Shown: piece by piece, positions 1,874-14,737 of the stretch
Layout: each line of letters starts with the position of its first letter
Numbering within the stretch: the first letter of the stretch is position 1
Source: Terriglobia bacterium
Lineage (GTDB): Bacteria > Acidobacteriota > Terriglobia > 20CM-2-55-15
Length of the DNA stretch: 64,000 nucleotides
Direction of reading: 5' to 3'
Assembly: GCA_963664115.2 (NCBI GenBank)
Contig: CAXWPJ010000007.1
Location: 40,732-104,731, forward strand
Program-made: the position numbers and the translations under genes
Notes under the pieces: generated by a model
What the model was told of the DNA's origin: nothing
Database searches by the model: none
The model's input: only the letters and a program-made list of their open reading frames with translations

Positions 1874-2047
1874 ATGGACGCCATAATAGTGAGTGAATTG
1901 GACAAGATTATCGCCTCGCTCGAGGTGATCGAGAACCAGTTAACGAAGGTCAAGGCCAGCGAAGAAGGCGCGGTATGGATTCGCTCAGAGTTTCCGCCGA
2001 TGCCCTTTCCGGCATTCGACCAGGAATCTTCATCACTTCCCATCTGA
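1874..2047 (+). CDS. Small hypothetical protein (57 aa)
   Basis: ATG 1874 preceded by AAGGGGAGAG; amphipathic, coiled-coil-like N-terminal half. Confidence 0.45.
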   Translation: MDAIIVSELDKIIASLEVIENQLTKVKASEEGAVWIRSEFPPMPFPAFDQESSSLPI

Positions 2048-2106
2048 GGACGCGCCCACACGGTCTGGGGAAGTCGCTTCGAGTTCAGAAGCTCAACTGC
2101 TCGGAC

Positions 2107-2148
2107 ACGCCCGCGAGAATTCGAAGCTCTGACCTTCGGATTCGTAGT
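2107..2148 (-). repeat. Direct repeat of the tRNA-Arg 3' half (att-like island boundary)
   Basis: acgcccgcgagaattcgaagctctgaccttcggattcgtagt matches 14665-14706 at 39/42 nt. Confidence 0.9.
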
Positions 2149-2432
2149 TCAATCCCTAACTTTTCAGCTGTTTTAATTCCGTTCAGACTGTCTGCTAATA
2201 CGTTGACAGTATGCGCCTTCTCGTCAAAGTCACACCCCATCCCTTTTTGGCTGTTTTTGGGTGTCTTCAGGCGTGTTGGTAGATGTTGTTAAATGCGGTA
2301 CCCTCGGACGCAACGCGATGTTTAAGAAGAACTGAACAAGCGGATTCAATATGTTCTCAGTGAAGCCGGTGGGGACACGGATGAAGTGGCCTTTTGTCGG
2401 CCGCCTATCACTGCTTTCGGTTCTCTTTACGT

Positions 2433-2447
2433 TGGCACTGCGCTTGC
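2433..2447 (+). promoter_or_regulatory. Putative sigma-54 (-24/-12) promoter
   Basis: TGGCAC-tgcgc-TTGC, an exact TGGCAC-N5-TTGC match ~100 bp upstream of the 2545 CDS. Confidence 0.6.
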
Positions 2448-2544
2448 CACTATGTTTGTACGACCTTTTAACCGGGGAGCGATCAACGCCACTCCACTGT
2501 CAACGAACATTAACGTGATTACTACAACTTATTGAGGAGTGATT

Positions 2545-3540
2545 ATGGCTAAAAAAACGAACAGACGCGAGTTTGTCAAGGTCGCTGGACTGGCGGCCTC
2601 GGGCTGGATGGCGACGGCCCGTGCGGTGAGCGGAGCAGTTCCTGAGTCGCAGGGGCAACCGGCGCCAAGAACAATGGGTGCGCGCTTTCGCGCGTTGATG
2701 AATGGGCCGGAACCGCTTATATGCCCGAACGGTTATGACACGCTTACGGCTCGTCTGATCGAGGCTCACGGCTTCAAAGGAGTGTTTATCGGCAGCAGTG
2801 TCGCTAATCAAGCCCTGGCCGGTATGCCGGACCAGGCGATCGTCACGGTGTCCGAGATCATCGAATATGATAGTACTGTCGCCGCGAACGTGGATATTCC
2901 TGTCCTTGCGGATCTCGATGACTTCGGCGCCACGCCTCTCACTATTTACCGCCTCGCGCAAAAGGCTGAACGCGGTGGGATCGGCTGCGCGGCCTTCGAT
3001 GACCGAATGCCCCTCAACCGCGCCACGGCCTATGCCGTTCCGGGTGTCCACCCCAGGGCTCGCATGATCGACAATATTCATGCAGCAGCCGACGCGCGTA
3101 CGGACATGGTCCTGATCGTGCGCTGTCTTGCGCCCACTCCGAATAATTCGTACAACGAGATGCTGGACCGGGCCGCCGCTTACGCCGAAGCCGGCGCTGA
3201 CGCTGTGTGGCTGGGATTGCCGACGGCCGAAGACTACGTACAGGCTGCCGGCATGATCACGAAGCCGCTGATGGCTACCGTCGGTGGCGCAAATTTACCG
3301 GCAACGGCGGCCGCTATGCTAGCAGCTCGAATCACCGTGGGTCAGGTCCCCAGCATGGTAGACATTGCGTTAGGCGCCATCGACAGAACACTGGTCGAAT
3401 TGAAAGCGACCGGACATAGGACCGAAGCAATAAAGGGGGCGCTGAACCGGGAGATGTCGCAGAAAATTAAGCAAGTTGAAGAACTCAATGCGCTCTCACG
3501 GAAGTACAATCTTCCCAGCGCCTCGGCTCCGGAACGCTAG
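2545..3540 (+). CDS. Isocitrate lyase/PEP mutase family protein with Tat signal
   Basis: NRREFVK twin-arginine leader; YD.LTARLIE..GF, G.PD, PVLADLDDFG, RAAAYAEAGADAV; RBS GAGGAG. Confidence 0.85.
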   Translation: MAKKTNRREFVKVAGLAASGWMATARAVSGAVPESQGQPAPRTMGARFRALMNGPEPLICPNGYDTLTARLIEAHGFKGVFIGSSVANQALAGMPDQAIVTVSEIIEYDSTVAANVDIPVLADLDDFGATPLTIYRLAQKAERGGIGCAAFDDRMPLNRATAYAVPGVHPRARMIDNIHAAADARTDMVLIVRCLAPTPNNSYNEMLDRAAAYAEAGADAVWLGLPTAEDYVQAAGMITKPLMATVGGANLPATAAAMLAARITVGQVPSMVDIALGAIDRTLVELKATGHRTEAIKGALNREMSQKIKQVEELNALSRKYNLPSASAPER

Positions 3541-3580
3541 CCCGCGTTGACAGCCCGCGTTGGCAAGGATGCCTGCTGAG

Positions 3581-4375
3581 GGCTCTGTCAACTTATCTTC
3601 CAACGGCCGAACCGATGGCATTTGGTCGCGAGTTGATCAGGCTGCCGTCACCGCTTCCCAAGTCGCAAAAGAACGCGCCCTCAACATGCGGTGGTGAACT
3701 GCTTTTAGTCTGTGCCTGGCCAAGCGGAAAAGATTCAGAACAACACCGTGAACATAGAGGAATCGTTGAGCGTGCGCAGGCGACTTGAATTTCCTCATCT
3801 GCCGTTCGTGCTGTCGGGTAGGTTGGTGTGAGGCTTCCGCTCGATTGTTCGCGTAACGTTCAGTGTCATGATTCGTCGAAGGCATGATCGTCCGGAGCGC
3901 TGCGCCGTGACTCTTCAACTTATCGGTGACGATTCGCAGCGGAGTCTTTCCTTGACCTTTCAAGAGTTTGCGAAAGAAGCGCTCCGCTGCACGACGGTTG
4001 CGCCGCGACTGAACGAGGATATCGATCACGTCACCGTCTTGATCCACGGCACGCCACAGGTATTGCCGTTGACCGTTGATCGTCACGAAGACCTCGTCGA
4101 GGAACCCTGTATCTCCGAGTCGACCTTGTCGTCGCTTCAGGCGCTTGGCATAGTCGAGCCCGAACTTCGCACACCACCGGCGAATTGTCTCGTAGGACAC
4201 GGTGATTCCTCGCTCGGCCAGCAAATCCTCGACTTCCCGAAAGCTGAGACTGAATCGATAGTAAAGCCAGACTGCATGCCTGATGATTTCAGCGGGATAG
4301 CGGTGTCCGTGGTAGCGGGATTGGGCGCTTTTCATCCAATCAGTGTGGCAGGTATGGTCTCAAGTTGACAATGCC
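3581..4375. mobile_element. IS6 family insertion sequence
   Basis: Terminal inverted repeats ggctctgtcaactt (3581-3594) and aagttgacaatgcc (4362-4375), 12/14 match, around a transposase. Confidence 0.92.
3637..4335 (-). CDS. IS6 family DDE transposase
   Basis: GHRYPAEII..AVWLYYRF.LS.R.VE, LDEVFV, YLWRAVD, IVTDK, NNRAE.SH. Confidence 0.95.
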   Translation of the reverse strand: MKSAQSRYHGHRYPAEIIRHAVWLYYRFSLSFREVEDLLAERGITVSYETIRRWCAKFGLDYAKRLKRRQGRLGDTGFLDEVFVTINGQRQYLWRAVDQDGDVIDILVQSRRNRRAAERFFRKLLKGQGKTPLRIVTDKLKSHGAALRTIMPSTNHDTERYANNRAEASHQPTRQHERQMRKFKSPAHAQRFLYVHGVVLNLFRLARHRLKAVHHRMLRARSFATWEAVTAA

Positions 4376-4678
4376 ATCTGGATTCCTCTGTCAAGTAGGC
4401 GTAACTCTCCTGTCTGTTTTCTCCCGCAAATATATTCAGCAGGACTGACTAGAGGTTGCGAGGTGAGTAGCTAGTCGACTGCATCCGTATCTTCGGCCTC
4501 AAAAGTGGAACGGTATTGTTCCGGGCCATGATGGAAATTTGCGCGCGGGGAGCCATCCAACAAAGACGTCTTGAGGACACCCGCGTCGCTTCAAATTCAC
4601 GGCCCACGGGTTTCGACCGTTCGGTTCAGCGTTCCACGCGGTGGGAAACAACCCGCGAAGTGTGGTATGAACTAAAGG

Positions 4679-5080
4679 ATGTCAGAATTTGGAGAAGCAA
4701 CTGGAGAAGTCCTTGGACAACATCTGATCGCCGACATGACGGGGTTGTCCCCTGTCCTCCTGCGTGATGGTGAGCGGATCATGCATGTTCTTAACGACGC
4801 GTTGGCGCTGGCAGGTTTTCACTCCATCAGGAGCGTGGAACATCACTTCGTCGAGCGTGGTGCGGGATTTACGGGGATGGTCCTTTTGGCGGAATCCCAT
4901 GCCGCCGTTCATACCTATCCCGAGCAGGAATACCTCGCGCTCGACATCTTCGCTTGCGGCGGTATCGATCCATCCACCGTCATGGACGCGTTGGTTCGAG
5001 AGCTGGGTCCTACATCAGTCGACGTGCGGACTCTGACACGCGCTCCTCGCGCGAGCATTCCCGCGGACAGAAAAACCTAA
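4679..5080 (+). CDS. speD: S-adenosylmethionine decarboxylase proenzyme
   Basis: G.HLIAD, G.TG.VLLAESH..VHTYPE (E-S autocleavage site), DIF.CG. Confidence 0.9.
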   Translation: MSEFGEATGEVLGQHLIADMTGLSPVLLRDGERIMHVLNDALALAGFHSIRSVEHHFVERGAGFTGMVLLAESHAAVHTYPEQEYLALDIFACGGIDPSTVMDALVRELGPTSVDVRTLTRAPRASIPADRKT

Positions 5081-5134
5081 TCCGGAGGGATATCACCCGA
5101 AAATGTTCGGGGTGAGGCCGGATTTGGCCTACCC

Positions 5135-6142
5135 TCAGAAGGTCCACACGATCAGGATCGAAGCGCCGATGTAGCCGAACGCTTCGAGGAGGCCGGCGCC
5201 GATGTTAGGATGTTCCTGCGTCTGTTCGTCGGCAAGTTTGACGCCCGGCGCCAGTAAGATGTCGGTGAATTTGTGGACGAAGAACAACATGATGAAGCCA
5301 AATGTGACATCGACCGCGAACAGCATCAGGCTATCGGTCCAGCCGGTGAAATCGCCGCCGACTGCCACACTGATGACATTGCCGATTCCGATGAGCGCTC
5401 CTCCGAACGCGAGGCCTACCGCAGCGTTATCTCTCTCCAGTTCTTCAAGAAACTTGTATGGGGTCACCCACTCGTACAGTCGTCCGGCGATCACCAATAC
5501 CACCTGGGCGAGTAACCAGAAAGCCAGTAGGACTAGCATGCCCGAACCCATGGCGCTGAATGCGCTCGCCGCGGGAGAAGCTCCCCCTAATTCGCCCTCG
5601 GTGGCACGGAGAATGATCAGGCCGTTGGCGATATATACGCCGGCCTCGACGTACCCCACGCCGAGGTTGCGATCTTGGACAATCTCTTTGGTGTTGTTGA
5701 ATGTAGGCAGAAGGATTTTTTCGCACATGAAGCTCGCCAGAAGCATAAGGACGATTGCAGAAAGACCGTAGATAGCGATCGTAACCACGTCTGTTCCGAG
5801 ACCCTGTGATTCGCCCGAAATCGCCCCACCGAAAGCGACCAGAATGCCGAAGTAATAGCCCACCGTGGAGATTGCGAGCGCCTGATTGTCCCGGGTGAAG
5901 AGTTCCGCATTCAACTCCACACGCCGATATAGACTGGAATAAGCGAATTTCGCGATCCACAAGAGAACAAACGCTTCGAGGATATAAACGAAGGATTCGC
6001 CGATTAGATACAAATTATCTACCAGAGAAACCTGCACCAACTGCGGCGTAGAAGTTTGCGCAGAGAGTGTAAATCCCAGTCCGGCGAATACCGGAGCGGC
6101 TAAGCCAAGTACGACAGCGAGAATGGCCGGCTGTTTGCTCAT
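5135..6142 (-). CDS. Tandem DUF350 (YjfL-like) membrane protein
   Basis: Repeated EL...DN.A.A/N.G.G motifs between TM helices; probable start ATG 6142 (MSKQPA), since the track's longer N-terminus overlaps the upstream gene. Confidence 0.8.
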   Translation of the reverse strand: MSKQPAILAVVLGLAAPVFAGLGFTLSAQTSTPQLVQVSLVDNLYLIGESFVYILEAFVLLWIAKFAYSSLYRRVELNAELFTRDNQALAISTVGYYFGILVAFGGAISGESQGLGTDVVTIAIYGLSAIVLMLLASFMCEKILLPTFNNTKEIVQDRNLGVGYVEAGVYIANGLIILRATEGELGGASPAASAFSAMGSGMLVLLAFWLLAQVVLVIAGRLYEWVTPYKFLEELERDNAAVGLAFGGALIGIGNVISVAVGGDFTGWTDSLMLFAVDVTFGFIMLFFVHKFTDILLAPGVKLADEQTQEHPNIGAGLLEAFGYIGASILIVWTF

Positions 6143-6173
6143 AATGAAATTCCTGTTGTGTCGTCGATCGCGA

Positions 6174-6929
6174 TCATTTTCCAAAGCTGCGCCCGCCTGA
6201 GACCGCCCGACTGCTTGCTCTGGCCTGAAAACGCGCCTGTTTGGCCTGATACCTCTGAGAGAAAGATGGCCGCGTTGTGGCAGTAGCCGTACCGTTCGCG
6301 CCGAAGGTGGGCCGTCCTCCAGTCTGAGGGCCGTAGTAGGGCTGTCCGCGATTCCTCGTGCCGACGTAGGTGCCGTAATCTCCCCGATTGATCCGGTGCC
6401 CACCCAACGCGGTCCTCATGAACGCGTACTGCCCGTAAAAAATCCAGAAACCGCCGGCACCAAAATACCCGTATTGGCTGCGACCCACATGCTGATAGTA
6501 GGGCGGGTGGCTCTGGTCATAGCCGGTCAAGGTGCCATCCGCATTCTTTGCGGCCACGACCATACCTATGGATCGCTCATAACGGTCCACCAGACGGTCG
6601 GAGATCGAATAGGTGTTCACCTGTTCATCAAACTCGGCCGCCTCGCCCTCGTCGGGGTTCTCTCCGATCGGTTCAGCGACCAGGTAGCTGCTCTTGAGCG
6701 TCATCGAGTTCCGCAGAAATCCGTCGTCGACATCGTCCACGATGATCGAATACTCGGAATATTCGGCAAGCTGTCGCGCCAACTCTGGGACCGGGTCATT
6801 GCGCGACAGCCAGCCGCCGACTACCCAGAATCCCAGCAGTACCACGACGGCGACCATCCCTGCCTGGATCCAGCGTTCCTCGCTTGTCTGCCTGGGCATC
6901 TCTCGACGCCTTGGATCATTTCTGTTCAT
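6174..6929 (-). CDS. Single-TM hypothetical protein with Gly/Tyr/Arg-rich tail ending GGRSFGK
   Basis: N-terminal TM helix, FW.FYGQYAFM motif, low-complexity tail; lies in operon between DUF4178 and DUF350 genes. Confidence 0.8.
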   Translation of the reverse strand: MNRNDPRRREMPRQTSEERWIQAGMVAVVVLLGFWVVGGWLSRNDPVPELARQLAEYSEYSIIVDDVDDGFLRNSMTLKSSYLVAEPIGENPDEGEAAEFDEQVNTYSISDRLVDRYERSIGMVVAAKNADGTLTGYDQSHPPYYQHVGRSQYGYFGAGGFWIFYGQYAFMRTALGGHRINRGDYGTYVGTRNRGQPYYGPQTGGRPTFGANGTATATTRPSFSQRYQAKQARFQARASSRAVSGGRSFGK

Positions 6930-6937
6930 GGTAGTTC

Positions 6938-7486
6938 CTAAGCGTCCCCACTCGGCAGGATGTTTGTGAACTGATACTCTTCCACATATTCGCCGACGAC
7001 AGACTTGAAATCCCTTTCTCCGTACTGCGTGACGAACAGTACATTGTTTCCTGTATCGTCACAATAGGTCCAACTGATGAAGTCTTTACCCGGGCCCTCG
7101 GCGTTTTCATGGAACCGACCTGCGCCGCTCTCCATCAGCCTATGGCTTCGCCCATTGCGGGTCAAGGTCTTAGGTGGATCTTCATGTCGGCGGGTATGTT
7201 CAATGACTTCTTCGGAGATCTCGCTGATAGAAATGCTTTCTGTCAGCGTCCAGGTGATCCCGTCGTCACTCGCACGTTCCAGATAGAGGACCTTGTCGGA
7301 GGTTTCGAGCACCCATTCTCTGGTCTCGACTCCAGAGTAGTCGTAGGTATTGTACCCCTTGACCTCCCAGGTCTTCATATCGTAATCGACCAGATATCCA
7401 ACCTTCATAACGCCCAGTTCAAAGTCCACCTGCGTGTCGGATTCTGCATCGTCTTGGCCACGGCCAAACCATTTTTTCCATCCCAT
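6938..7486 (-). CDS. DUF4178 domain protein
   Basis: G.LVDYD..TWEV, YDY....EW.L, beta-rich aromatic composition; operon context. Confidence 0.7.
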   Translation of the reverse strand: MGWKKWFGRGQDDAESDTQVDFELGVMKVGYLVDYDMKTWEVKGYNTYDYSGVETREWVLETSDKVLYLERASDDGITWTLTESISISEISEEVIEHTRRHEDPPKTLTRNGRSHRLMESGAGRFHENAEGPGKDFISWTYCDDTGNNVLFVTQYGERDFKSVVGEYVEEYQFTNILPSGDA

Positions 7487-7515
7487 CTTTCATCATCCCC
7501 CTAGGGAGCATCGGA

Positions 7516-9108
7516 CTACCATCGAGCGAGATCGTCCCGATAATACCCCGCCAGAGTCGGTCGTGCCAAGGTATTAGGCTCGACCTCAACACGGGTCATG
7601 TCCGCATCAAAATGTAAATTGGCCAAGAACAATTCCTTGTTCAGGTAACGCAGCCCGGGCATAAACTGAACGCTGCCAGGATCGATCGGTGCCTCGGACC
7701 CGATATGAAAGCCCCATTCGCCGAAGGAAGGTACGTAGGCGTGAAACGAGAGCACCTCGAGATCCGCTTCTTCCATCGATTTGCCGATACACCAGTAGGC
7801 CTGGCGCGTGTAGTAAGGGCTCGTCGCCTGAGTAATTACCACTCCTCCGGGAGCCAGATGCCGACGAATCAGCTTGTACGCTTCGACCGAGAACAGTTTT
7901 GAGATCTCTTCTTCTCGCGGATCTGGAAGATCGATTACCACCACCGAATAGGGTTCGTGTTCCCTCTGCAGAAAACTAAACCCATCTTCGTTAATCACCC
8001 GGACCCGGGGGTGGCTCAGGGCGTTCCGGTTCAGGTCGGTAAAATAGAGATTGCGCCTGGCCAGCGTCGTCATGGCCGGATCGAGGTCCACCAGCTCGAT
8101 CTCGTCCACCTCGGAATACCGCAGGATTTCACGAACGGCGAGACCGTCACCGCCGCCGACGACCAGAACCCGTGCCCGGCTATGCGAAAACGCCATGGCA
8201 GGGTGGACCAGCGCTTCGTGATACCGGTACTCGTCGACTGAGGAGAACTGTAGATGCTCGTTCAAAAAGAGCCGGGTTTCATCCTTCCAGCGCGTAACCA
8301 CAATCTTCTGATATTCGGTCTCCGTGCTGAAAACCACCTGGCCTTCGTAGAGGGAATCTTCCCACCGATCCATCAGGGGCTGGGCTTGACTTGCGAATAC
8401 AGCCAACACAGTAGAAATCAGGACGCCCTGGACGACGAGTCGTGCCCGGTCTCCGGCCGATATTTGGGCCCACACGGCGAGAAGGATGGCCGAACCAGCG
8501 GCAACGTTGAGGGCGCCGGCGAGGAGTGATGTATGAAACGCCCCGAGAACCGGCAAACAAAAGAATGGGAAGAGAACAGCGGCGACCAGAGCGCCAACGT
8601 AATCGACCGAAAGCACATTCGACAGGATCGTCCGCAACGATCCGTGTCTTCGCAGGATCCGTGTGAGGAGCGGGATCTCCAGTCCGATGAGCGTGCCGAT
8701 GATCAGGATGATGACCAGCATCAGGTATTTGTAGACGCTGGTGTAGGCGTTCGCGAGGTACAGAGCGGGAACTGTCAGACCTCCGAACAACCCGAGCCAC
8801 AGTTCCAACGCCACCAACCGCCGGATCAAGTTCCCGTGAACGGCCCTCGAGATCCACGAGCCCAGGCCCATCGCGAAAAGAAAGAATCCGATCGTCAGCG
8901 AGTACTGTTGGACGCTGTTGCCCAGGAAATACGACGAGATACTTCCGACCAGTAACTCGTAGACGATTCCGCACGCCGCGGCGACGAAAATCGATGCGAG
9001 TATCAGGAACAGACCCAGCCGCGACAGCCTTTCTTCTCCCAACCCGACATCGTCGAACTCTAGTTCGTTGGGGGTAAGATTGGTGTCAGGTGTCTTGCTG
9101 ATGCTCAT
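7516..9108 (-). CDS. speE: Polyamine aminopropyltransferase with N-terminal multi-TM domain
   Basis: CG.VYEL TM domain; YQ.I, LQFSS.DEYRYHEALVHP, VGGGDG, VDLDP, IDLPDP, PSFGEWGF. Confidence 0.92.
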   Translation of the reverse strand: MSISKTPDTNLTPNELEFDDVGLGEERLSRLGLFLILASIFVAAACGIVYELLVGSISSYFLGNSVQQYSLTIGFFLFAMGLGSWISRAVHGNLIRRLVALELWLGLFGGLTVPALYLANAYTSVYKYLMLVIILIIGTLIGLEIPLLTRILRRHGSLRTILSNVLSVDYVGALVAAVLFPFFCLPVLGAFHTSLLAGALNVAAGSAILLAVWAQISAGDRARLVVQGVLISTVLAVFASQAQPLMDRWEDSLYEGQVVFSTETEYQKIVVTRWKDETRLFLNEHLQFSSVDEYRYHEALVHPAMAFSHSRARVLVVGGGDGLAVREILRYSEVDEIELVDLDPAMTTLARRNLYFTDLNRNALSHPRVRVINEDGFSFLQREHEPYSVVVIDLPDPREEEISKLFSVEAYKLIRRHLAPGGVVITQATSPYYTRQAYWCIGKSMEEADLEVLSFHAYVPSFGEWGFHIGSEAPIDPGSVQFMPGLRYLNKELFLANLHFDADMTRVEVEPNTLARPTLAGYYRDDLARW

Positions 9109-10811
9109 TGAACTGCGCCCGTCTCTCCGGATAGACCCTTGATCGATGATTCGAATGTCCTGCCGAGGCGCTCCAGGACCTGTTCGGCCGCCCGGATGCC
9201 GGAAAAACAGGCTTCTTCGAACAGCGGCAGTCCTGTCGTGTCACACGAGGCGAAATACACGTTTCCGAAAGGCTCCCTCCGAGTGACGCTTTCTGGGCCC
9301 CATATGAGTCCCGGCCTCGGCCGGATCATGGCGTGACCCCACCGGTAAACGTCGATGCGGTCTACGACACGCTCCAGGTCCGGATGGGCCAACAGTAGGT
9401 CCCGCATGATCACGTTGACCCAGTACGGATGTTCTTCTTCAAGGAGCTTTCTACGAGCAAGGTCGATGTCCTCGACGAACGGGAGATAATAAACCAGGAT
9501 CGATGGGTTGTCTCTGTAGACCTGTCGGGTTTGATGATCAGCGACAATGTAGCCTAGGGATTGGCTGTCGCGGAGTACATTGTCCCACGCGATCGAGACT
9601 TCGGCGTTTGTGGGCAACTCGCTCACGTGGATACTGGCGGTCAGCCATGGGCTGTAATCACAGGATTCGATCGCTTCTACCTGGGGCCGTGGCAATCCAT
9701 CGACCAGGAAAGGCGCGGTGTGGAGCTTGGAGGCATGGATCACGGTTCGGGCCGAAATAGTGCGATATGTCTCACTCGGTGTATCGAAGTAGCCGACCCG
9801 AACGCCGGGATTGTCGTTATCGATGTTGTCGATGCGAAGCACCGTGCATCCGAGCCGGTATTGCGAGTCGTCCAGGTCTTGGGCTAAGCGTTGTACCAGA
9901 AACCCGTTTCCCGCGGGCCACGTCAACGTATCCGAAGGGTACTGGTCCCACAGCCGCTCGTCGTAGTATCGGCAGGCGAAATAGTGAATGCCGGCCCAGG
10001 CCGACACGGTTGCCATCATGCTCCCGTAATCGTCCCGGCAAGCATAGTTGATCATCCAATCCAACCGTGGCGAATTCCATCCTTTGGAGCGGACGTAGGT
10101 TTCCATCGAAATCTTGTCGAGATCACGAACCCGGGAGTCCGTGGTGCTGTAGCTGAGAGGGAGTGCGAATGCGCGCCGGCCGTCAAAACCGCGGTAAAGC
10201 GTCCAGGTCAGCATGTCGTCCTCAAAGGCAAGTATGGCTTCGCGGTCCTGGGTTGAGGCCCCGGCGAGCAGATCCCATTCGATCCATCTTCCGTCCATGA
10301 AGACACGTTCGGTGGGCCATCGCAGGATGTGTTGTTCGGGAATCCTCGGCCGTCCGGCCTCATCGTAGCCTTCGATTATGCCCAGGTCGGACAGGACTTC
10401 TTTGACGCAATCCGCTTCCGCGGGCGGAATATTGATGTAGTGTGCCGCCCAGGGGAATTCCGCGCCCTCTGCGCTTCCGGACGCGGAGGTGCCTCCAAGC
10501 CAGGGCTCCAGTTCGAGCAGGACAAAGTTGTCCAGTCCGGCCTTCATCAGCTTCCAGGCTGCGCACAGTCCAGAAACGCCACCTCCGACGATGGCGACGT
10601 CGTAGGTATGAGCATCAGGCTCGGGAAATCGATCGCGAGGGTGGGGTTCGCGCAGAAGATGCCCCGCCTGCTGGCCCCCCCCCACGATTTGCCCCGGAAC
10701 TTTGAAGGTCCTCGGAGGCGGAGTGCCTGAATTCCAGCACGAAGGCACGACCGCCAGAAGGCTGCCGGTCGCGGAGAGGCGAAGGAACCGACGGCGTGTA
10801 AAGAACGACAT
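9105..10811 (-). CDS. FAD-dependent oxidoreductase (amine oxidase-like) with Tat signal, possible lipoprotein
   Basis: TRRRFL leader then VPSC; IVGGGVSGL Rossmann motif; WAAHY, YACRDDYG, RWGHAM, LFEEA; start ATG 10811. Confidence 0.85.
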   Translation of the reverse strand: MSFFTRRRFLRLSATGSLLAVVPSCWNSGTPPPRTFKVPGQIVGGGQQAGHLLREPHPRDRFPEPDAHTYDVAIVGGGVSGLCAAWKLMKAGLDNFVLLELEPWLGGTSASGSAEGAEFPWAAHYINIPPAEADCVKEVLSDLGIIEGYDEAGRPRIPEQHILRWPTERVFMDGRWIEWDLLAGASTQDREAILAFEDDMLTWTLYRGFDGRRAFALPLSYSTTDSRVRDLDKISMETYVRSKGWNSPRLDWMINYACRDDYGSMMATVSAWAGIHYFACRYYDERLWDQYPSDTLTWPAGNGFLVQRLAQDLDDSQYRLGCTVLRIDNIDNDNPGVRVGYFDTPSETYRTISARTVIHASKLHTAPFLVDGLPRPQVEAIESCDYSPWLTASIHVSELPTNAEVSIAWDNVLRDSQSLGYIVADHQTRQVYRDNPSILVYYLPFVEDIDLARRKLLEEEHPYWVNVIMRDLLLAHPDLERVVDRIDVYRWGHAMIRPRPGLIWGPESVTRREPFGNVYFASCDTTGLPLFEEACFSGIRAAEQVLERLGRTFESSIKGLSGETGAVQ

Positions 10812-10824
10812 TGCTGGATGATAC

Positions 10825-11526
10825 TCAGATGCCCATTTTCTTCTTGAGCTCAGCCAGCGAGTCGCTGGTCTCGGCCGAGCTGGGCACCGCAAGGGTTCTG
10901 TCAATCTCCTGGTCCAGGGTGACGCTCGCGTCTGTCATGTCTCCGTAAGCCTCGGCAAGCGACTCCTCCTCTATCACTTTGTCCTTCATCCTTTCCAGTA
11001 GTGCAATCGTACTGGAGGAGTCGGCGTTCGACATCTGCTGGTTGATTTTCCGCATCGATGTCGCCGTCTTGGCACGGGCTCTCAAGGTCACCAACTCGGT
11101 CTCGAAGCGGCTGATGGTTTCCTTCAGCGTTCCCACCTTCGCCTGGAGCTGGTCCCCCATGGATTTTTGCTGCTCGTAATCCTTCTTTAAGGAACCTGAG
11201 CGTTGGAGAGCCTCCTCCTTCTTGGTCAAGGCTTCAGTTGCCAGACGTTCCGCGTCAGCTTCGGGCAGATCCCCGCTCTTCATTTTCTGGAGAAGAAGCA
11301 TCGCTTTTCTTTCGTAATCCTTCGCAAGCTTTTTCTGGTCGTCCGAGTCTTTCTTGAAACGAATTGCGATCGCTTTAACTTGCGCCAGACTCTGCATAGA
11401 GCCCTGCAGGTCTTTCTTCAGGTCGCGAATTCCCTGCTCGCTCATCTTGATCGGGTCTTCGAGCTTATCCGCGACCGAATGTGCCTGGGACTGCACGTTT
11501 TTGAAAATTCTTTGAAAAAAACTCAT
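10825..11526 (-). CDS. pspA: PspA/IM30 (ESCRT-III-like) family protein
   Basis: MSFFQRIF amphipathic start, DKLEDPIKM.EQ.IRD, long coiled coil, LERMKDKV...E..AEA, LAELKKKMG. Confidence 0.92.
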   Translation of the reverse strand: MSFFQRIFKNVQSQAHSVADKLEDPIKMSEQGIRDLKKDLQGSMQSLAQVKAIAIRFKKDSDDQKKLAKDYERKAMLLLQKMKSGDLPEADAERLATEALTKKEEALQRSGSLKKDYEQQKSMGDQLQAKVGTLKETISRFETELVTLRARAKTATSMRKINQQMSNADSSSTIALLERMKDKVIEEESLAEAYGDMTDASVTLDQEIDRTLAVPSSAETSDSLAELKKKMGI

Positions 11527-11942
11527 TTGTCAGCTCCCCCCGACTGTCGGTGACTAAATTTCAGCAACTCTGGGCCGTTTTCGGCCAGGGCAAGCTCCAG
11601 CGACCGGATGGAGCCTTCCAACTCGTTACAATCCAGGTTTTCCAGTTGCAAGGTATCGCGGAAAAGGACACGGTTACCTTCTTCGTCATCGAGCACAAAC
11701 GCTCCATGTACCATGGTTCGGTTCATCTGGAGGAGGCGTTTGAAGAAATCTCCAGCATCCTCGGGGACATCCATGATGAGTTGTTCGAGGATGACGATTG
11801 GGGGTTCGCAGTCAATGATCAGGTTATGAATCCCATTCTCCTCATCCTCCACCACGATCAACTCTTCGGCTTCATCCTCGCTGACGATCTTGAGATCGAT
11901 ATCGAGCAGATAGCCCTTCACCAAGTCTAGGTTCTCGGACAT
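11523..11942 (-). CDS. YbjN/CesT-like chaperone-fold protein
   Basis: LLQMNR.MVHGAF.LD, FRDTLQLENLD.NEL; 4-nt overlap with pspA. Confidence 0.7.
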   Translation of the reverse strand: MSENLDLVKGYLLDIDLKIVSEDEAEELIVVEDEENGIHNLIIDCEPPIVILEQLIMDVPEDAGDFFKRLLQMNRTMVHGAFVLDDEEGNRVLFRDTLQLENLDCNELEGSIRSLELALAENGPELLKFSHRQSGGADK

Positions 11943-11944
11943 GT

Positions 11945-12334
11945 TTACTTCTCCTGTCTGTTTGTCTCGCTCTGGGACCGCTTCCGTAGCCGCTCGTAAG
12001 CACCGTTCAACCGTTGCGTCAGTTCATCGGCTATTTTTAGTTTCTCGAGATCTTTCGAATGCAGATCCGGGTGGTATTTCCGTAACAGCCGTATCCATGC
12101 CTTCCGGACCGTGGCAAGGCTGGAACCATAGGGCACCTCCAGGTTGGAATAGAGTTCGGCCAACTCCGGATCGATGCGCTGGGCGTTAGATTCGATATTT
12201 CTGCTACCGTGGCCCGGCCCGTGGGCCCGAGTCTGCCTTTGGCGTCCACGTGCCCGATCAGCGTGAATCCGTCCGTTCGAGCCAGCGTGGATCTGGGCTC
12301 GAATGAGGCGGATCACGCGGGTTGCCAGTTCCAA
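11945..12334 (-). CDS. J-domain (DnaJ-like) protein
   Basis: YSNLEVP....VRKAW..LLRKYHPD...LN.AYE.L with HPD motif. Confidence 0.85.
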   Translation of the reverse strand: MELATRVIRLIRAQIHAGSNGRIHADRARGRQRQTRAHGPGHGSRNIESNAQRIDPELAELYSNLEVPYGSSLATVRKAWIRLLRKYHPDLHSKDLEKLKIADELTQRLNGAYERLRKRSQSETNRQEK

Positions 12335-12463
12335 TCAATCAGCTCCCTCGAAGACAGGTTTTCAATGACGACATTGCGCGCTCATCAGAATCATAACTCA
12401 ATAGGTTATATTTGGCGGTATTGATAAGCTCGCGTTCGTCAGTGAAGGGATGACTCGATCACC

Positions 12464-13522
12464 ATGCTCAGGTTGATTATGGAATGGTTCCGGCGCTTCA
12501 GGCCGGAAAGACACGGCGAAATCCGTAAGGTAATCCTCTTGTTTTCCGCCCTGACCGCCCTGGGTGCGGTCGGTTATAGACTTTTCGAGGGTGCTGCCGA
12601 TCCCGAGCTGTCCTGGAACGATGCCATTTGGTGGTCGATCGTTACGATGACGACCGTGGGATACGGGGACTATTTTCCAACGACCGCCTACGGTCGCTAC
12701 CTGGTGGCGATTCCACTGATGTTTGTCGGCATCGGCATCCTTGGCTACTTGCTCTCGGTGATGGCAACTGCGTTGATTGAGTCGAGGTCAAAGGAGTTGA
12801 AAGGCATGACAGATCTCCACGTTGAATCCCATGTGCTCGTAGTGAATTTTCAAAGTGAAGGCCGGAATCTAGAGATTGTCAAGGAGCTGCGGGAGGACTC
12901 CAAGACAAAGGACCTTGCAATAGTGTTGGTCGATGACCACCTCGACGAGCTGCCGCCCGAACTGGGGAAACTGGGTGTCCGTTTTGTGAAGGGCAACCCA
13001 TCGAGGGAAAGTGTCCTGCGGCGCGCATGCGTCGACAAGGCGCGTTATGCGATCGTTCTTGCCTCGGAAGTGGACCCATCGCGCGCCGATGACCATACTC
13101 TTGCCGCGGCCCTTACAATCGAATCGATCAACCCCAACATCTTCACGGTCGCCGAATGCCTCGACCCTGAGCGTGTGGGACTGATGCGCCGATCGGGATG
13201 CGACAGCGTGGTCTGCGTGTCCGGTCTCGCATCGTCCTTCTTGGTTCAGGAGGTTTGCGATCCTGGCATGCATGCCGTCGTCAACGAACTGATGTCAAAC
13301 AGATTTGGTCAACAAGTCTACATCGTTCCGGTTGAACAAATGCAAAACTGGGAATTTTCTGAGCTGCAGGCACATCTTTCACGAAAAGGGTACCTTGTAT
13401 TGGGAATACAACGCGGCAGCGAGGCACTGCTCAACCCAGGGAATGCGTACAAGATCGAAGCGAGCGATCACGTCATCTGCATGGGGCCACACAGGCCCGC
13501 TCCGGTTCGGATCTCGAGCTAG
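12464..13522 (+). CDS. Potassium channel with RCK/TrkA domains
   Basis: TMTTVGYGD selectivity filter between two TMs, followed by Rossmann-like RCK and TrkA-C regions. Confidence 0.92.
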   Translation: MLRLIMEWFRRFRPERHGEIRKVILLFSALTALGAVGYRLFEGAADPELSWNDAIWWSIVTMTTVGYGDYFPTTAYGRYLVAIPLMFVGIGILGYLLSVMATALIESRSKELKGMTDLHVESHVLVVNFQSEGRNLEIVKELREDSKTKDLAIVLVDDHLDELPPELGKLGVRFVKGNPSRESVLRRACVDKARYAIVLASEVDPSRADDHTLAAALTIESINPNIFTVAECLDPERVGLMRRSGCDSVVCVSGLASSFLVQEVCDPGMHAVVNELMSNRFGQQVYIVPVEQMQNWEFSELQAHLSRKGYLVLGIQRGSEALLNPGNAYKIEASDHVICMGPHRPAPVRISS

Positions 13523-14286
13523 CGATCTTTGGTCGGTGACTGCGCCTTAGAACGTTTCCAGAATGCGGATAGTCCTAACACCAGAACGCCCACTGAGATT
13601 GCTCCACAAACAACACCCCAGAACCAATACGGCAAGAATAGTAGATCTGCGAGCTGTGCAACGTCGGAGGGCATAGCTCCGGCACCAGTCATCGCGGTCT
13701 TGGTGAAGAGATAGTCCGCGCGCGAGAAAACACTGAGTGCCATCTGTACGGCTAGGACTGCGACAGTAAACTGAGCGATTCCGGCACCAAAGCGTCTACC
13801 CACATAGAACAGGCTTCCACCCACTGCTCCGACGAAAGCAAACCCAAAGACGTTGCGTATGACCAGGACGCAGGCAGCAATCATTAATGCTCCGAATGCC
13901 ATGAGCGCGATCTGTGCAAGGCGCGCGCGGGCGGACAACCAAAACAAGAATGCTCCTGCAACTGCCGGTCCAATGAGCCCGCCCGCCGCTGTGGCCGCAC
14001 GGCTCAATCGGCCCGCGGCGCCTCCTATCATGGCTACCCCGGACCCGTCAGCGTAGAGTCGGAAAGAATCGAACTCCAGGCCAACCAACATTGCCGTCAG
14101 TCCGTGGCCCATTTCATGGGCCACGGTTGACAAGAGAAGAATCGGATAACCGACAACTCCACCAAAGGGAAGCAATGGCGCCAAGATGCCGACGGCTGTG
14201 GCCGCAGTCAACGCAGCTCTCGCACGCGCTCGGTCTGAGGATCCCTGGCGAATTCGTAAGGAATCGAAAAGTCGCTCGAAATTCAT
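13519..14286 (-). CDS. M50B-like membrane metallopeptidase
   Basis: HEMGH, AGG.IGP and SD...LA motifs; multiple TMs. Confidence 0.85.
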   Translation of the reverse strand: MNFERLFDSLRIRQGSSDRARARAALTAATAVGILAPLLPFGGVVGYPILLLSTVAHEMGHGLTAMLVGLEFDSFRLYADGSGVAMIGGAAGRLSRAATAAGGLIGPAVAGAFLFWLSARARLAQIALMAFGALMIAACVLVIRNVFGFAFVGAVGGSLFYVGRRFGAGIAQFTVAVLAVQMALSVFSRADYLFTKTAMTGAGAMPSDVAQLADLLFLPYWFWGVVCGAISVGVLVLGLSAFWKRSKAQSPTKDR

Positions 14287-14425
14287 ATCGCTCGAGAGGG
14301 AATCGTTCCTGACAACTGAAACCGTCGCGTGCCTAACGCGTGCGGCTGAAGAACTGCGACCTCATGCACTCGCCCAACTTTGAACACTCCACGAGCCCCC
14401 GCAACAGTCAGAGTCTTCCCTCGAC

Positions 14426-14584
14426 CTATAATAGACAGTTGACCCCTCGCCGTTCACCTGCCAGTTGTTGAAGCTTGAGGTTGAGCTTATAGGCGACGAC
14501 CTTCGCCTTACGGAGCAGTTCTGTCGTTGAAAAGGATGGGTTCAAGGCGTCCCGCTGCAGTTCGAGGACTATTGGGTCAGGCAT
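14426..14584 (-). pseudogene. Truncated AbiTii-like N-terminal domain
   Basis: IVLELQRDAL.......LLRKAKVVA.KL resembles the AbiTii N-terminus; ends after ~52 aa. Confidence 0.6.
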
Positions 14585-14663
14585 AGCGTGGCAACCTATG
14601 GCAACCAGAGGCGAGAAAACGAAAAAGGCCGCCACTTTGGCAGCCTAACTTCTTTGTTTTCAA

Positions 14664-14737
<74 letters not shown>

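Follow-up and report, generated by a model that had tools for sequence, protein, structure and literature searches.

What would a bacterium do with an aminopropyltransferase that is built into a membrane protein and encoded beside PspA, a protein of the bacterial ESCRT-III type? The question is raised by a block of eleven genes at positions 4679-14286 of the window, by which we mean the whole 64,000-nucleotide stretch analysed here (Terriglobia bacterium, Acidobacteriota; GenBank assembly GCA_963664115.2, contig CAXWPJ010000007.1, positions 40,732 to 104,731 of the forward strand). The reading that we favour is tail-lysine aminopropylation within a horizontally spread envelope-stress module, in which the enzyme would modify the terminal lysine of a co-encoded protein ending in Gly-Lys (the GK protein). 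From sequence comparison, structural models and analogy we put its probability at about 0.5. It builds on the gene content, order and spread of the block, on the half major facilitator superfamily (MFS) and aminopropyltransferase fold of the enzyme, on its conserved active site and on the conserved Gly-Lys end. An initial annotation of this DNA had proposed a membrane aminopropylation system distinct from housekeeping spermidine synthesis, which is still the best reading, and a coupling of envelope modification to PspA is likely.

All eleven genes were confirmed as real and intact using the list of open reading frames (ORFs) and Pfam and equivalog family scans. They are, with coordinates, strand and main support:

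4679-5080, plus strand: speD, which converges on the DUF350 end of the operon (PF02675 and TIGR03330 above cut-off)
5135-6142, minus strand: two-domain DUF350 (YjfL-type) membrane protein of 335 residues (PF03994 twice; 9 hydrophobic segments, of which one is N-terminal and the other 8 are TM helices)
6174-6929, minus strand: Gly-Lys-ended, membrane-anchored protein with an Arg/Ser/Gly-rich tail (one transmembrane (TM) helix, no Pfam family)
6938-7486, minus strand: DUF4178 protein, predicted to be cytoplasmic (PF13785)
7516-9108, minus strand: 7-TM aminopropyltransferase (NF002956, 602.6 against a cut-off of 472; model and fold searches)
9105-10811, minus strand: flavin amine-oxidase-family protein with a twin-arginine signal (PF01593; N-termini of relatives)
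10825-11526, minus strand: PspA/IM30, ESCRT-III-like (PF04012, 143 bits)
11523-11942, minus strand: CesT/Tir-like (YbjN-like) chaperone-fold protein (PF22550, 168.8 bits)
11945-12334, minus strand: small J-domain protein with an HPD motif (PF00226; sequence)
12464-13522, plus strand: 2-TM K+ channel with an RCK/TrkA domain (PF07885, PF02254), divergent from the operon
13519-14286, minus strand: M50B membrane metalloprotease (PF13398), which converges on the K+ channel gene

Eight of these genes, from the J-domain gene through CesT/YbjN-like, PspA, flavoenzyme, aminopropyltransferase, DUF4178 and GK protein to DUF350, form a head-to-tail series on the minus strand, with intergenic gaps of 2, -4, 13, -4, 29, 8 and 31 bases, so that the packed operon with a converging speD described in the initial annotation is confirmed. 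Seven of the eight pass a Pfam cut-off, the exception being the GK protein. The K+ channel and M50 protease that had been placed at the start of the operon are both present; they lie outside it. The DUF350 and flavoenzyme genes are likely to start at 6142 and 10811, respectively, and not at the longest-ORF positions.

The predicted model of the aminopropyltransferase, built from 78 sequences, has a predicted local distance difference test score (pLDDT) of 91. In fold searches, residues 28-219 match one six-helix MFS bundle (OxlT, Z score 18.3, root-mean-square deviation 2.8 over 181 aligned residues; FLVCR2, Z score 17.9) and residues 245-528 match aminopropyltransferases (Z score 35.1), with a seventh helix between the bundle and the spermidine-synthase-fold domain. 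MFS proteins have two six-helix bundles per chain; this enzyme has the single bundle and resembles half an MFS. Residues Gln267, Gln287, His297, Asp321, Asp393 and Asp396, which we take to have the catalytic roles, are kept in 74-78 of the 78 homologue rows. The enzyme carries the dcSAM-binding GGG(D/E)G motif (as intact GGGDG; dcSAM is decarboxylated S-adenosylmethionine), YHE and the catalytic DxxD, the motif set of aminopropyltransferases as described in PMC11107197. It scores below the SpeE equivalog cut-offs (TIGR00417, 133.2 against 249.55; PRK00811, 162.9 against 260) and has seven TM helices. The soluble aminopropyltransferases from Thermus (1UIR and 3ANX) and E. coli SpeE (3O4F) share its catalytic fold and motifs at an identity of about 30% or less, but they lack a membrane domain, are cytoplasmic and act on free polyamines.

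Among the 78 homologues, Lys and Arg are abundant in the N-terminus and loops 2, 4 and 6 and sparse in loops 1, 3 and 5. Under the positive-inside rule Lys/Arg-rich loops lie on the cytoplasmic side, and over seven helices this bias therefore predicts that the N-terminus and loops 2, 4 and 6 are inside and the catalytic domain outside. A catalytic domain in that position would need dcSAM from the cytoplasm. The TM acidic residues Glu51, Glu102, Glu144 and Asp169 are kept in 75-78 of the 78 homologue rows, and the acidic half-transporter is the likely route for dcSAM, probably as a dimer.

The neighbouring SpeD is the only copy in the genome (a single match) and belongs to the class 1b pyruvoyl S-adenosylmethionine decarboxylases (TIGR03330, 101 against a cut-off of 75.65), with a cleavage motif that aligns with those of 2III and 1TLU. 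It is the likely source of dcSAM for the enzyme, and we note that SpeD homologues can switch substrate from S-adenosylmethionine to ornithine or arginine (PMC10407285). The absence of a separate soluble speE, raised in the initial annotation as a point to check, holds for the five PF01564 matches in the genome, of which three are fusions with 12-13 TM helices that lack the Asp of GGGDG and another is a short, weakly matching protein. The three fusions (820-1060 residues; G000 C2:539016-539471, C1:82829-83311 and C6:95096-95548) are common in the family and are possibly full-MFS-fused methyltransferases. They are probably not partners of SpeD, on account of the missing Asp.

The GK protein consists of a folded domain and an Arg/Ser/Gly-rich tail, with one TM helix (model pLDDT 91). 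It has a signal anchor and no lipobox Cys; 76 of 96 members of its family have a lipobox-like Cys by a loose pattern. Foldseek with the model gave no match at E<=0.001, which does not imply a new fold, and an ESM Atlas search returned unnamed lipoprotein clusters with recognition below the mark set by the tool. Its C-terminus is Gly-Lys in 24 of 24 locus copies. GK or HK ends are found in none of 94 enzymes, 27 PspAs or 50 SpeDs. Among the best 150 of 584 family representatives, 121 end in Gly-Lys and seven in Arg-Arg, many of the remainder being fragments. A co-oriented hydrophobic ORF ending in [GH]K is present at 52 of 73 enzyme loci (80 minus seven with short flanks), compared with 1/73 on the opposite strand and 4/87 distal windows. 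The carriers of these ends are unrelated in size and sequence, and include peptides of 50-90 residues, DUF4178 fusions and lipoproteins of 250 residues. Fusions of the form DUF4178-TM-GK domain in some relatives (P0095 and P0117) indicate that DUF4178 and the GK domain lie on opposite sides of the membrane. A 504-residue protein (P0109) combines a GK-family domain with two DUF350 domains and is either a real fusion or a read-through artefact. When GK homologues are divided by their last residue (86 loci, less open, duplicate and short-flank rows), DUF350 is adjacent in 0/4 Arg-ended against 41/50 Lys-ended cases and the enzyme is in the locus in 0/3 against 31/42. The homologues that end in a run of Arg, with neither DUF350 nor the enzyme nearby, form a subgroup of their own (loci L136-L139; proteins P0082, P0084, P0093, P0150 and P0173).

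The main argument for the terminal Lys as acceptor comes from comparison with E. coli K-12, in which the last gene of the sister operon is annotated as a peptide-spermidine ligase and the tail protein ends in Gly-Gly instead of Gly-Lys. The Gly-Gly end recurs in 35 of 36 full-length homologues of the E. coli protein (picked from 112 matches, the named ones enterobacterial, and compared at their sequence ends only). Gly-Gly offers a free carboxyl, appropriate for a ligase, and Gly-Lys offers the free amine of a lysine, appropriate for an aminopropyltransferase; this leads us to infer that the latter acts on the tail Lys. Peptide-spermidine ligase activity has been reported for YgiC and YjfC (PMC11762307 and a reference in it).

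On these grounds the module might work as follows. SpeD would make dcSAM, which would cross the membrane through a dimer of half-MFS bundles lined by the four conserved acidic residues. The catalytic domain, predicted to face the periplasm, would aminopropylate the terminal Lys of the GK protein; DUF350 would be its partner in the membrane, retaining or sensing the tail, and DUF4178 the cytoplasmic link to CesT-PspA. The exported flavoenzyme may act as an oxidase on the aminopropyl group, removing or oxidising it, with PspA as the membrane-repair output and the J-protein and K+ channel as accessories. Taken as a whole, this would be a new extracytoplasmic cycle of protein modification: an enzyme fused to a half-transporter would export dcSAM and attach an aminopropyl (polyamine-like) group to the C-terminal Lys of a lipoprotein, a twin-arginine-exported oxidase would erase it, and DUF350 and DUF4178 would pass on the modification state to bacterial ESCRT-III. 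The GG-tail ligase operons of E. coli would then be a convergent route to the same polyaminated tail. We put the complete cycle forward tentatively, as a possibility that is rather more likely to fail in some part than to hold throughout.

Several points weigh against tail-lysine aminopropylation. The Arg-ended counts are tiny and come from kin that are not independent, and the outward topology rests on charge bias. The tail tracks DUF350 (51/52 enzyme loci against 1/21), so nearly perfectly that it may be a ligand of DUF350 and not a substrate of the enzyme; neither tail nor DUF350 is nearby in 20 of the 73 enzyme loci, and 11 of 42 Lys-tailed homologues have no enzyme in the locus. The flavoenzyme and speD occur in 23 and 22, respectively, of 43 enzyme loci with sufficient flanks. 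In two Bacteroidota loci the enzyme occurs together with a GG-tailed lipoprotein and a ligase of the glutathionylspermidine (GSP) synthetase type. At these loci (L053:674-2405 and L087:33-1785) the TM enzyme is divergent to the GG-ended lipoprotein and the GSP-synthase-like ligase, so that both chemistries stand at one locus; the pairing agrees with a free polyamine as the product, or with an aminopropyl transfer to a ligated diamine. A complex prediction for the enzyme and the GK protein scored 0.03 against a mark of 0.32 and is given no weight either way.

Some of the same observations would suit an enzyme that aminopropylates a small molecule, a lipid head group or a cell-wall amine on the outward-facing side of the membrane, with the Gly-Lys tail as a docking or sensing peptide for DUF350. 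Tail and DUF350 are concordant in 71 of 73 loci, the enzyme stands in 20 of these 73 with neither and in two loci with the GG-tail ligase set, and cell-wall-linked cadaverine is known in Selenomonas (PMC8503589). We nevertheless regard this as unlikely, if well short of negligible, since DUF350 partners GG tails too in the ligase operons, so that the switch to a terminal Lys follows the type of enzyme and not DUF350, and since the Lys is kept on otherwise unrelated carriers. In Braun's lipoprotein the terminal Lys is the point of cross-linking to peptidoglycan. A similar role here, with the tail protein tethering membrane to wall and the polyamine chemistry acting on the wall or tuning the link, would agree with the free C-terminal Lys and the lipoprotein-like character of most GK-family members (the 76 of 96 noted above), but no recurrent transpeptidase gene was seen among the annotated neighbour clusters and the GG-ended analogues have no such Lys; we think it improbable.

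Much the same low probability attaches to the enzyme as the host's route to bulk spermidine. The single speD, the lack of a detected soluble SpeE and the intact GGGDG motif would be expected of such a route, whereas the sub-threshold SpeE scores, the predicted outside position of the catalytic domain and the lack of an orthologue by this enzyme query in 15 of 24 family genomes would not; bacterial membrane-aminopropyltransferase fusions have moreover been reported to make neither spermidine nor spermine (PMC12803844, citing Li et al. 2019). The initial annotation had also considered an anti-phage role plausible. The block is indeed mobile and patchy (9/24 family genomes), is often flanked by insertion sequences (IS; 6/9) and lies in the window in a tRNA island beside an AbiTii stub. 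The island link is, however, private to the source genome, the enzyme family is stable across whole families of the phylum, and PADLOC 2.0 gave only partial generic hits for two of the eleven block proteins (methyltransferase fold and FAD motif). DUF350 is absent from the 20 papers listed among the 1,096 matches of a literature search, and heat adaptation has been linked to the sister operon in E. coli (PMC12492005). An anti-phage system is thus improbable too, and on present evidence the block is not a defence candidate.

Tail-lysine aminopropylation being the preferred reading, the remaining members of the block can be placed around it. The flavoenzyme has a twin-arginine signal followed by a Cys that is kept in most of the relatives shown, and is predicted to be a lipoprotein exported by the twin-arginine pathway. 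Its likeness to the amine oxidases is clear by Pfam; the nearest solved sequences are amine and putrescine oxidases, with weak matches limited to the FAD motif. PspA is the only copy in the genome (a single match) and scores 47.5 on TIGR02977, below the cut-off of 242.95 for classical Psp proteins; no pspF, pspB or pspC neighbour was found among the scanned block proteins. The gene for the K+ channel, an accessory, is co-oriented with the operon in more distant relatives, and that for M50B travels with the block in close relatives only.

How much of this is new can be judged from Ravi et al. 2024 (PMC11237479), in which this kind of operon is in print as the 'second major group' of PspA operons, exemplified by the SO_3765 region of Shewanella oneidensis, with polyamine monitoring or aminopropylation of other substrates as proposed functions. 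Shared with the published group are the CesT-PspA dyad (PF22550 then PF04012, with a 4-base overlap), the 7-TM synthase fusion, the 8-TM DUF350, DUF4178 and an exported protein with a low-complexity tail. The block differs in its gene order, in the additional J-domain gene, twin-arginine flavoenzyme, speD, K+ channel and M50B, in that no ribbon-helix-helix gene was seen in it and in the signal anchor without lipobox Cys of the tail protein. That protein is likely to be the Ctha_1186-type protein of Ravi et al., with which it shares slot and architecture; a cluster look-up with ten GK-family proteins gave no link to Ctha_1186. The terminal Lys, the outward topology and mobility are not mentioned in the available part of PMC11237479, and no printed statement of tail-lysine aminopropylation was found in the literature searched, which covered few subscription papers. 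The same paper describes a variant that lacks PspA and has AdoMet decarboxylase and polyamine oxidase, and also a ligase type with a K+ channel. Like the block, the PspA-free band-7/SHOCT variant combines the DUF350 set with speD and a flavin oxidase; the block, by contrast, keeps CesT-PspA and lacks a band-7 gene. Two loci of this PspA-free type (L025 and L101) were met in the enzyme survey. The MFS-spermidine-synthase-like fusions of Li et al. 2019, as reported in PMC11237479 and PMC12803844, likewise combine a membrane domain and a spermidine-synthase-like domain with a class 1b SpeD.

The likeness to yjfIJKLM-yjfC of E. coli noted in the initial annotation holds, and extends to ygiB-ygiC: these have a CesT-like protein, a PspA-family protein, DUF350, a lipoprotein-like protein with an Arg/Ser/Gly tail and an adjoining polyamine-transfer enzyme. 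Where the block has the aminopropyltransferase, the GK protein and DUF4178, the yjfI-yjfC type has an ATP-grasp ligase, DUF1190 and DUF2491, and no Pfam match to the GSP-synthetase-like ATP-grasp ligase, DUF1190 or DUF2491 was found among the block proteins. Expression of yjfIJKL has been tied to heat-evolved E. coli strains (PMC12492005), and PMC10948618 remarks that experimental data are lacking for one of these types of operon. In our assessment the block is a fuller, mobile variant of a published kind of operon and is not new as an instance of that kind.

The recurrence of these genes in other genomes was borne out by a neighbourhood survey, which found them together across genomes and phyla. 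An enzyme orthologue with 83-97% identity is present in nine of the 24 same-family genomes, in all nine of which the eight genes and speD follow in the same order, in some cases with insertions, and the flanks differ each time. The complete eight-gene set was also found in two Vicinamibacteria, two Latescibacterota and one Gemmatimonadaceae record. The nearest named relatives of the enzyme are from Terriglobia (96% and 88% identity). Gene content was counted in the 43 of 80 enzyme loci with at least 5 kb upstream and at least 2.5 kb downstream: DUF4178-type proteins occur in 35, DUF350 in 34, the flavoenzyme in 23, speD in 22, PspA in 11, the K+ channel in nine, the J-domain protein in seven and M50 in two. 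PspA, named as a part of the system in the initial annotation, is present in the window's operon but is optional in the family. The two sets of enzyme loci used in this work overlap, so that their counts are not additive, and related loci are kin and not independent, so that the counts are not probabilities. Of 301 genomes of the phylum, 58 carry the enzyme family. A search of 50,697 phage records with the enzyme query gave no match; 129 plasmid records match, and among the 20 matches listed all exceed 1 Mb. Relatives of two classes have, between pspA and the flavoenzyme gene, an inserted membrane-type ORF of 360-400 residues that is read from the other strand (L022:10907-12001, which has no Pfam match, and L041:5499-6704), and in three metagenome loci (L151, L199 and L201) a second pair of TM enzyme and flavoenzyme converges on the operon.

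The DNA of the block is 85-88% identical to that of L040 across a class boundary, where rpoB is 69-72% identical, and the L040 enzyme is 85% identical where EF-G is 71%. Block identity also exceeds that of rpoB in three family members (94 against 83, 84 against 77 and 81-85 against 76). Since block identity is above that of rpoB across the class boundary and the flanks differ each time, the sequences support a mobile block and recent horizontal transfer between bacterial classes.

In the window the block lies in an island marked by the following features:

2107-2148: direct repeat of the 3' end of tRNA-Arg, left island edge (39/42 bases identical to 14665-14706)
3580-4378, minus strand: IS6-family element, left block edge (transposase ORF 3637-4335; NF033587, 207.9 bits against a cut-off of 125; further copies in the genome)
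4376-4564: repeat of about 190 bases, likely a miniature inverted-repeat transposable element or IS end (many copies in the genome and relatives)
14426-14584, minus strand: AbiTii N-terminal stub of 52 codons (Pfam E 7.8e-6, just under cut-off; PADLOC E 4.9e-8)
14664-14737, minus strand: tRNA-Arg(ACG), right island edge (tRNA scan)

The recurrence of the tRNA 3' end delimits an island of about 12.5 kb, and the earlier description of a tRNA island beside an Abi remnant is correct. The use made of it as a hint of phage defence is not sustained. None of the nine block-bearing relatives has a window flank gene or a tRNA within the 20 kb retrieved (11 kb in one case), so that the block lies away from this tRNA site in all nine, and transposase ORFs stand near the block in six. 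The same interval, from arfB/udk to tRNA-Arg, carries other content in 5/5 relatives examined, from about 2 kb to about 32 kb; in four of these the block sits elsewhere, and the fifth has no match to the enzyme query. Homology of the block to relatives spans from about 4574 to about 14444. In the window the IS6 element and the multicopy repeat form the left boundary of the block, and the truncated AbiTii stub forms its right boundary. We infer that the block entered a pre-existing hot spot and cut an Abi gene. As a guest in the island, it gains no argument for defence from the stub.

No integrase match was found among the island proteins in a general family scan, and the GC content of the block (0.561) is not distinct from that of the genome (0.567), so that GC does not mark the island. 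A contig joint skipping 1932-14663 in two DNA runs has only 30 bases on its short side and was not used. The repeat at 4376-4564 has at least ten copies in the source genome at 81-96% identity and many in relatives. A PEP-mutase/isocitrate-lyase-family protein at 2539-3540 (plus strand) has a twin-arginine-like N-terminus, and an exported member of this family would be unusual; its gene belongs to the island cargo in the source genome and G002 and has another location in G001 and G004. At the same tRNA-Arg site G002 (C2:3578000-3603000; L116-L117) carries a pair of att-like repeats together with ORFs of phage-like appearance on visual inspection. Promoter and terminator scans did no better than shuffles (3 against 4.6 and 10 against 9.4, respectively). 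Contigs from four RNA runs of one study, in small shares and mostly 90-95% alike, cover parts of several block genes and some parts of the flanks, which does not imply transcription. In runs X5, X6, X9 and X10 many contigs 90-95% alike stack over 5000-13500 of the window and not over the flanks of the block, a pattern that several community members with related copies would produce.

The block demonstrates that the module passes from one bacterial class to another in a full version. The GK versus GG rule names a candidate acceptor for the membrane-fused 'spermidine synthases' and a candidate substrate for YgiC/YjfC, and the Gly-Lys tail reading makes a known open question directly testable. 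If the reading is true, these enzymes would carry out an extracytoplasmic lysine modification that provides a signal input to bacterial ESCRT-III, and if the complete cycle holds, the two unexplained operon classes, GK and GG, would share one logic.

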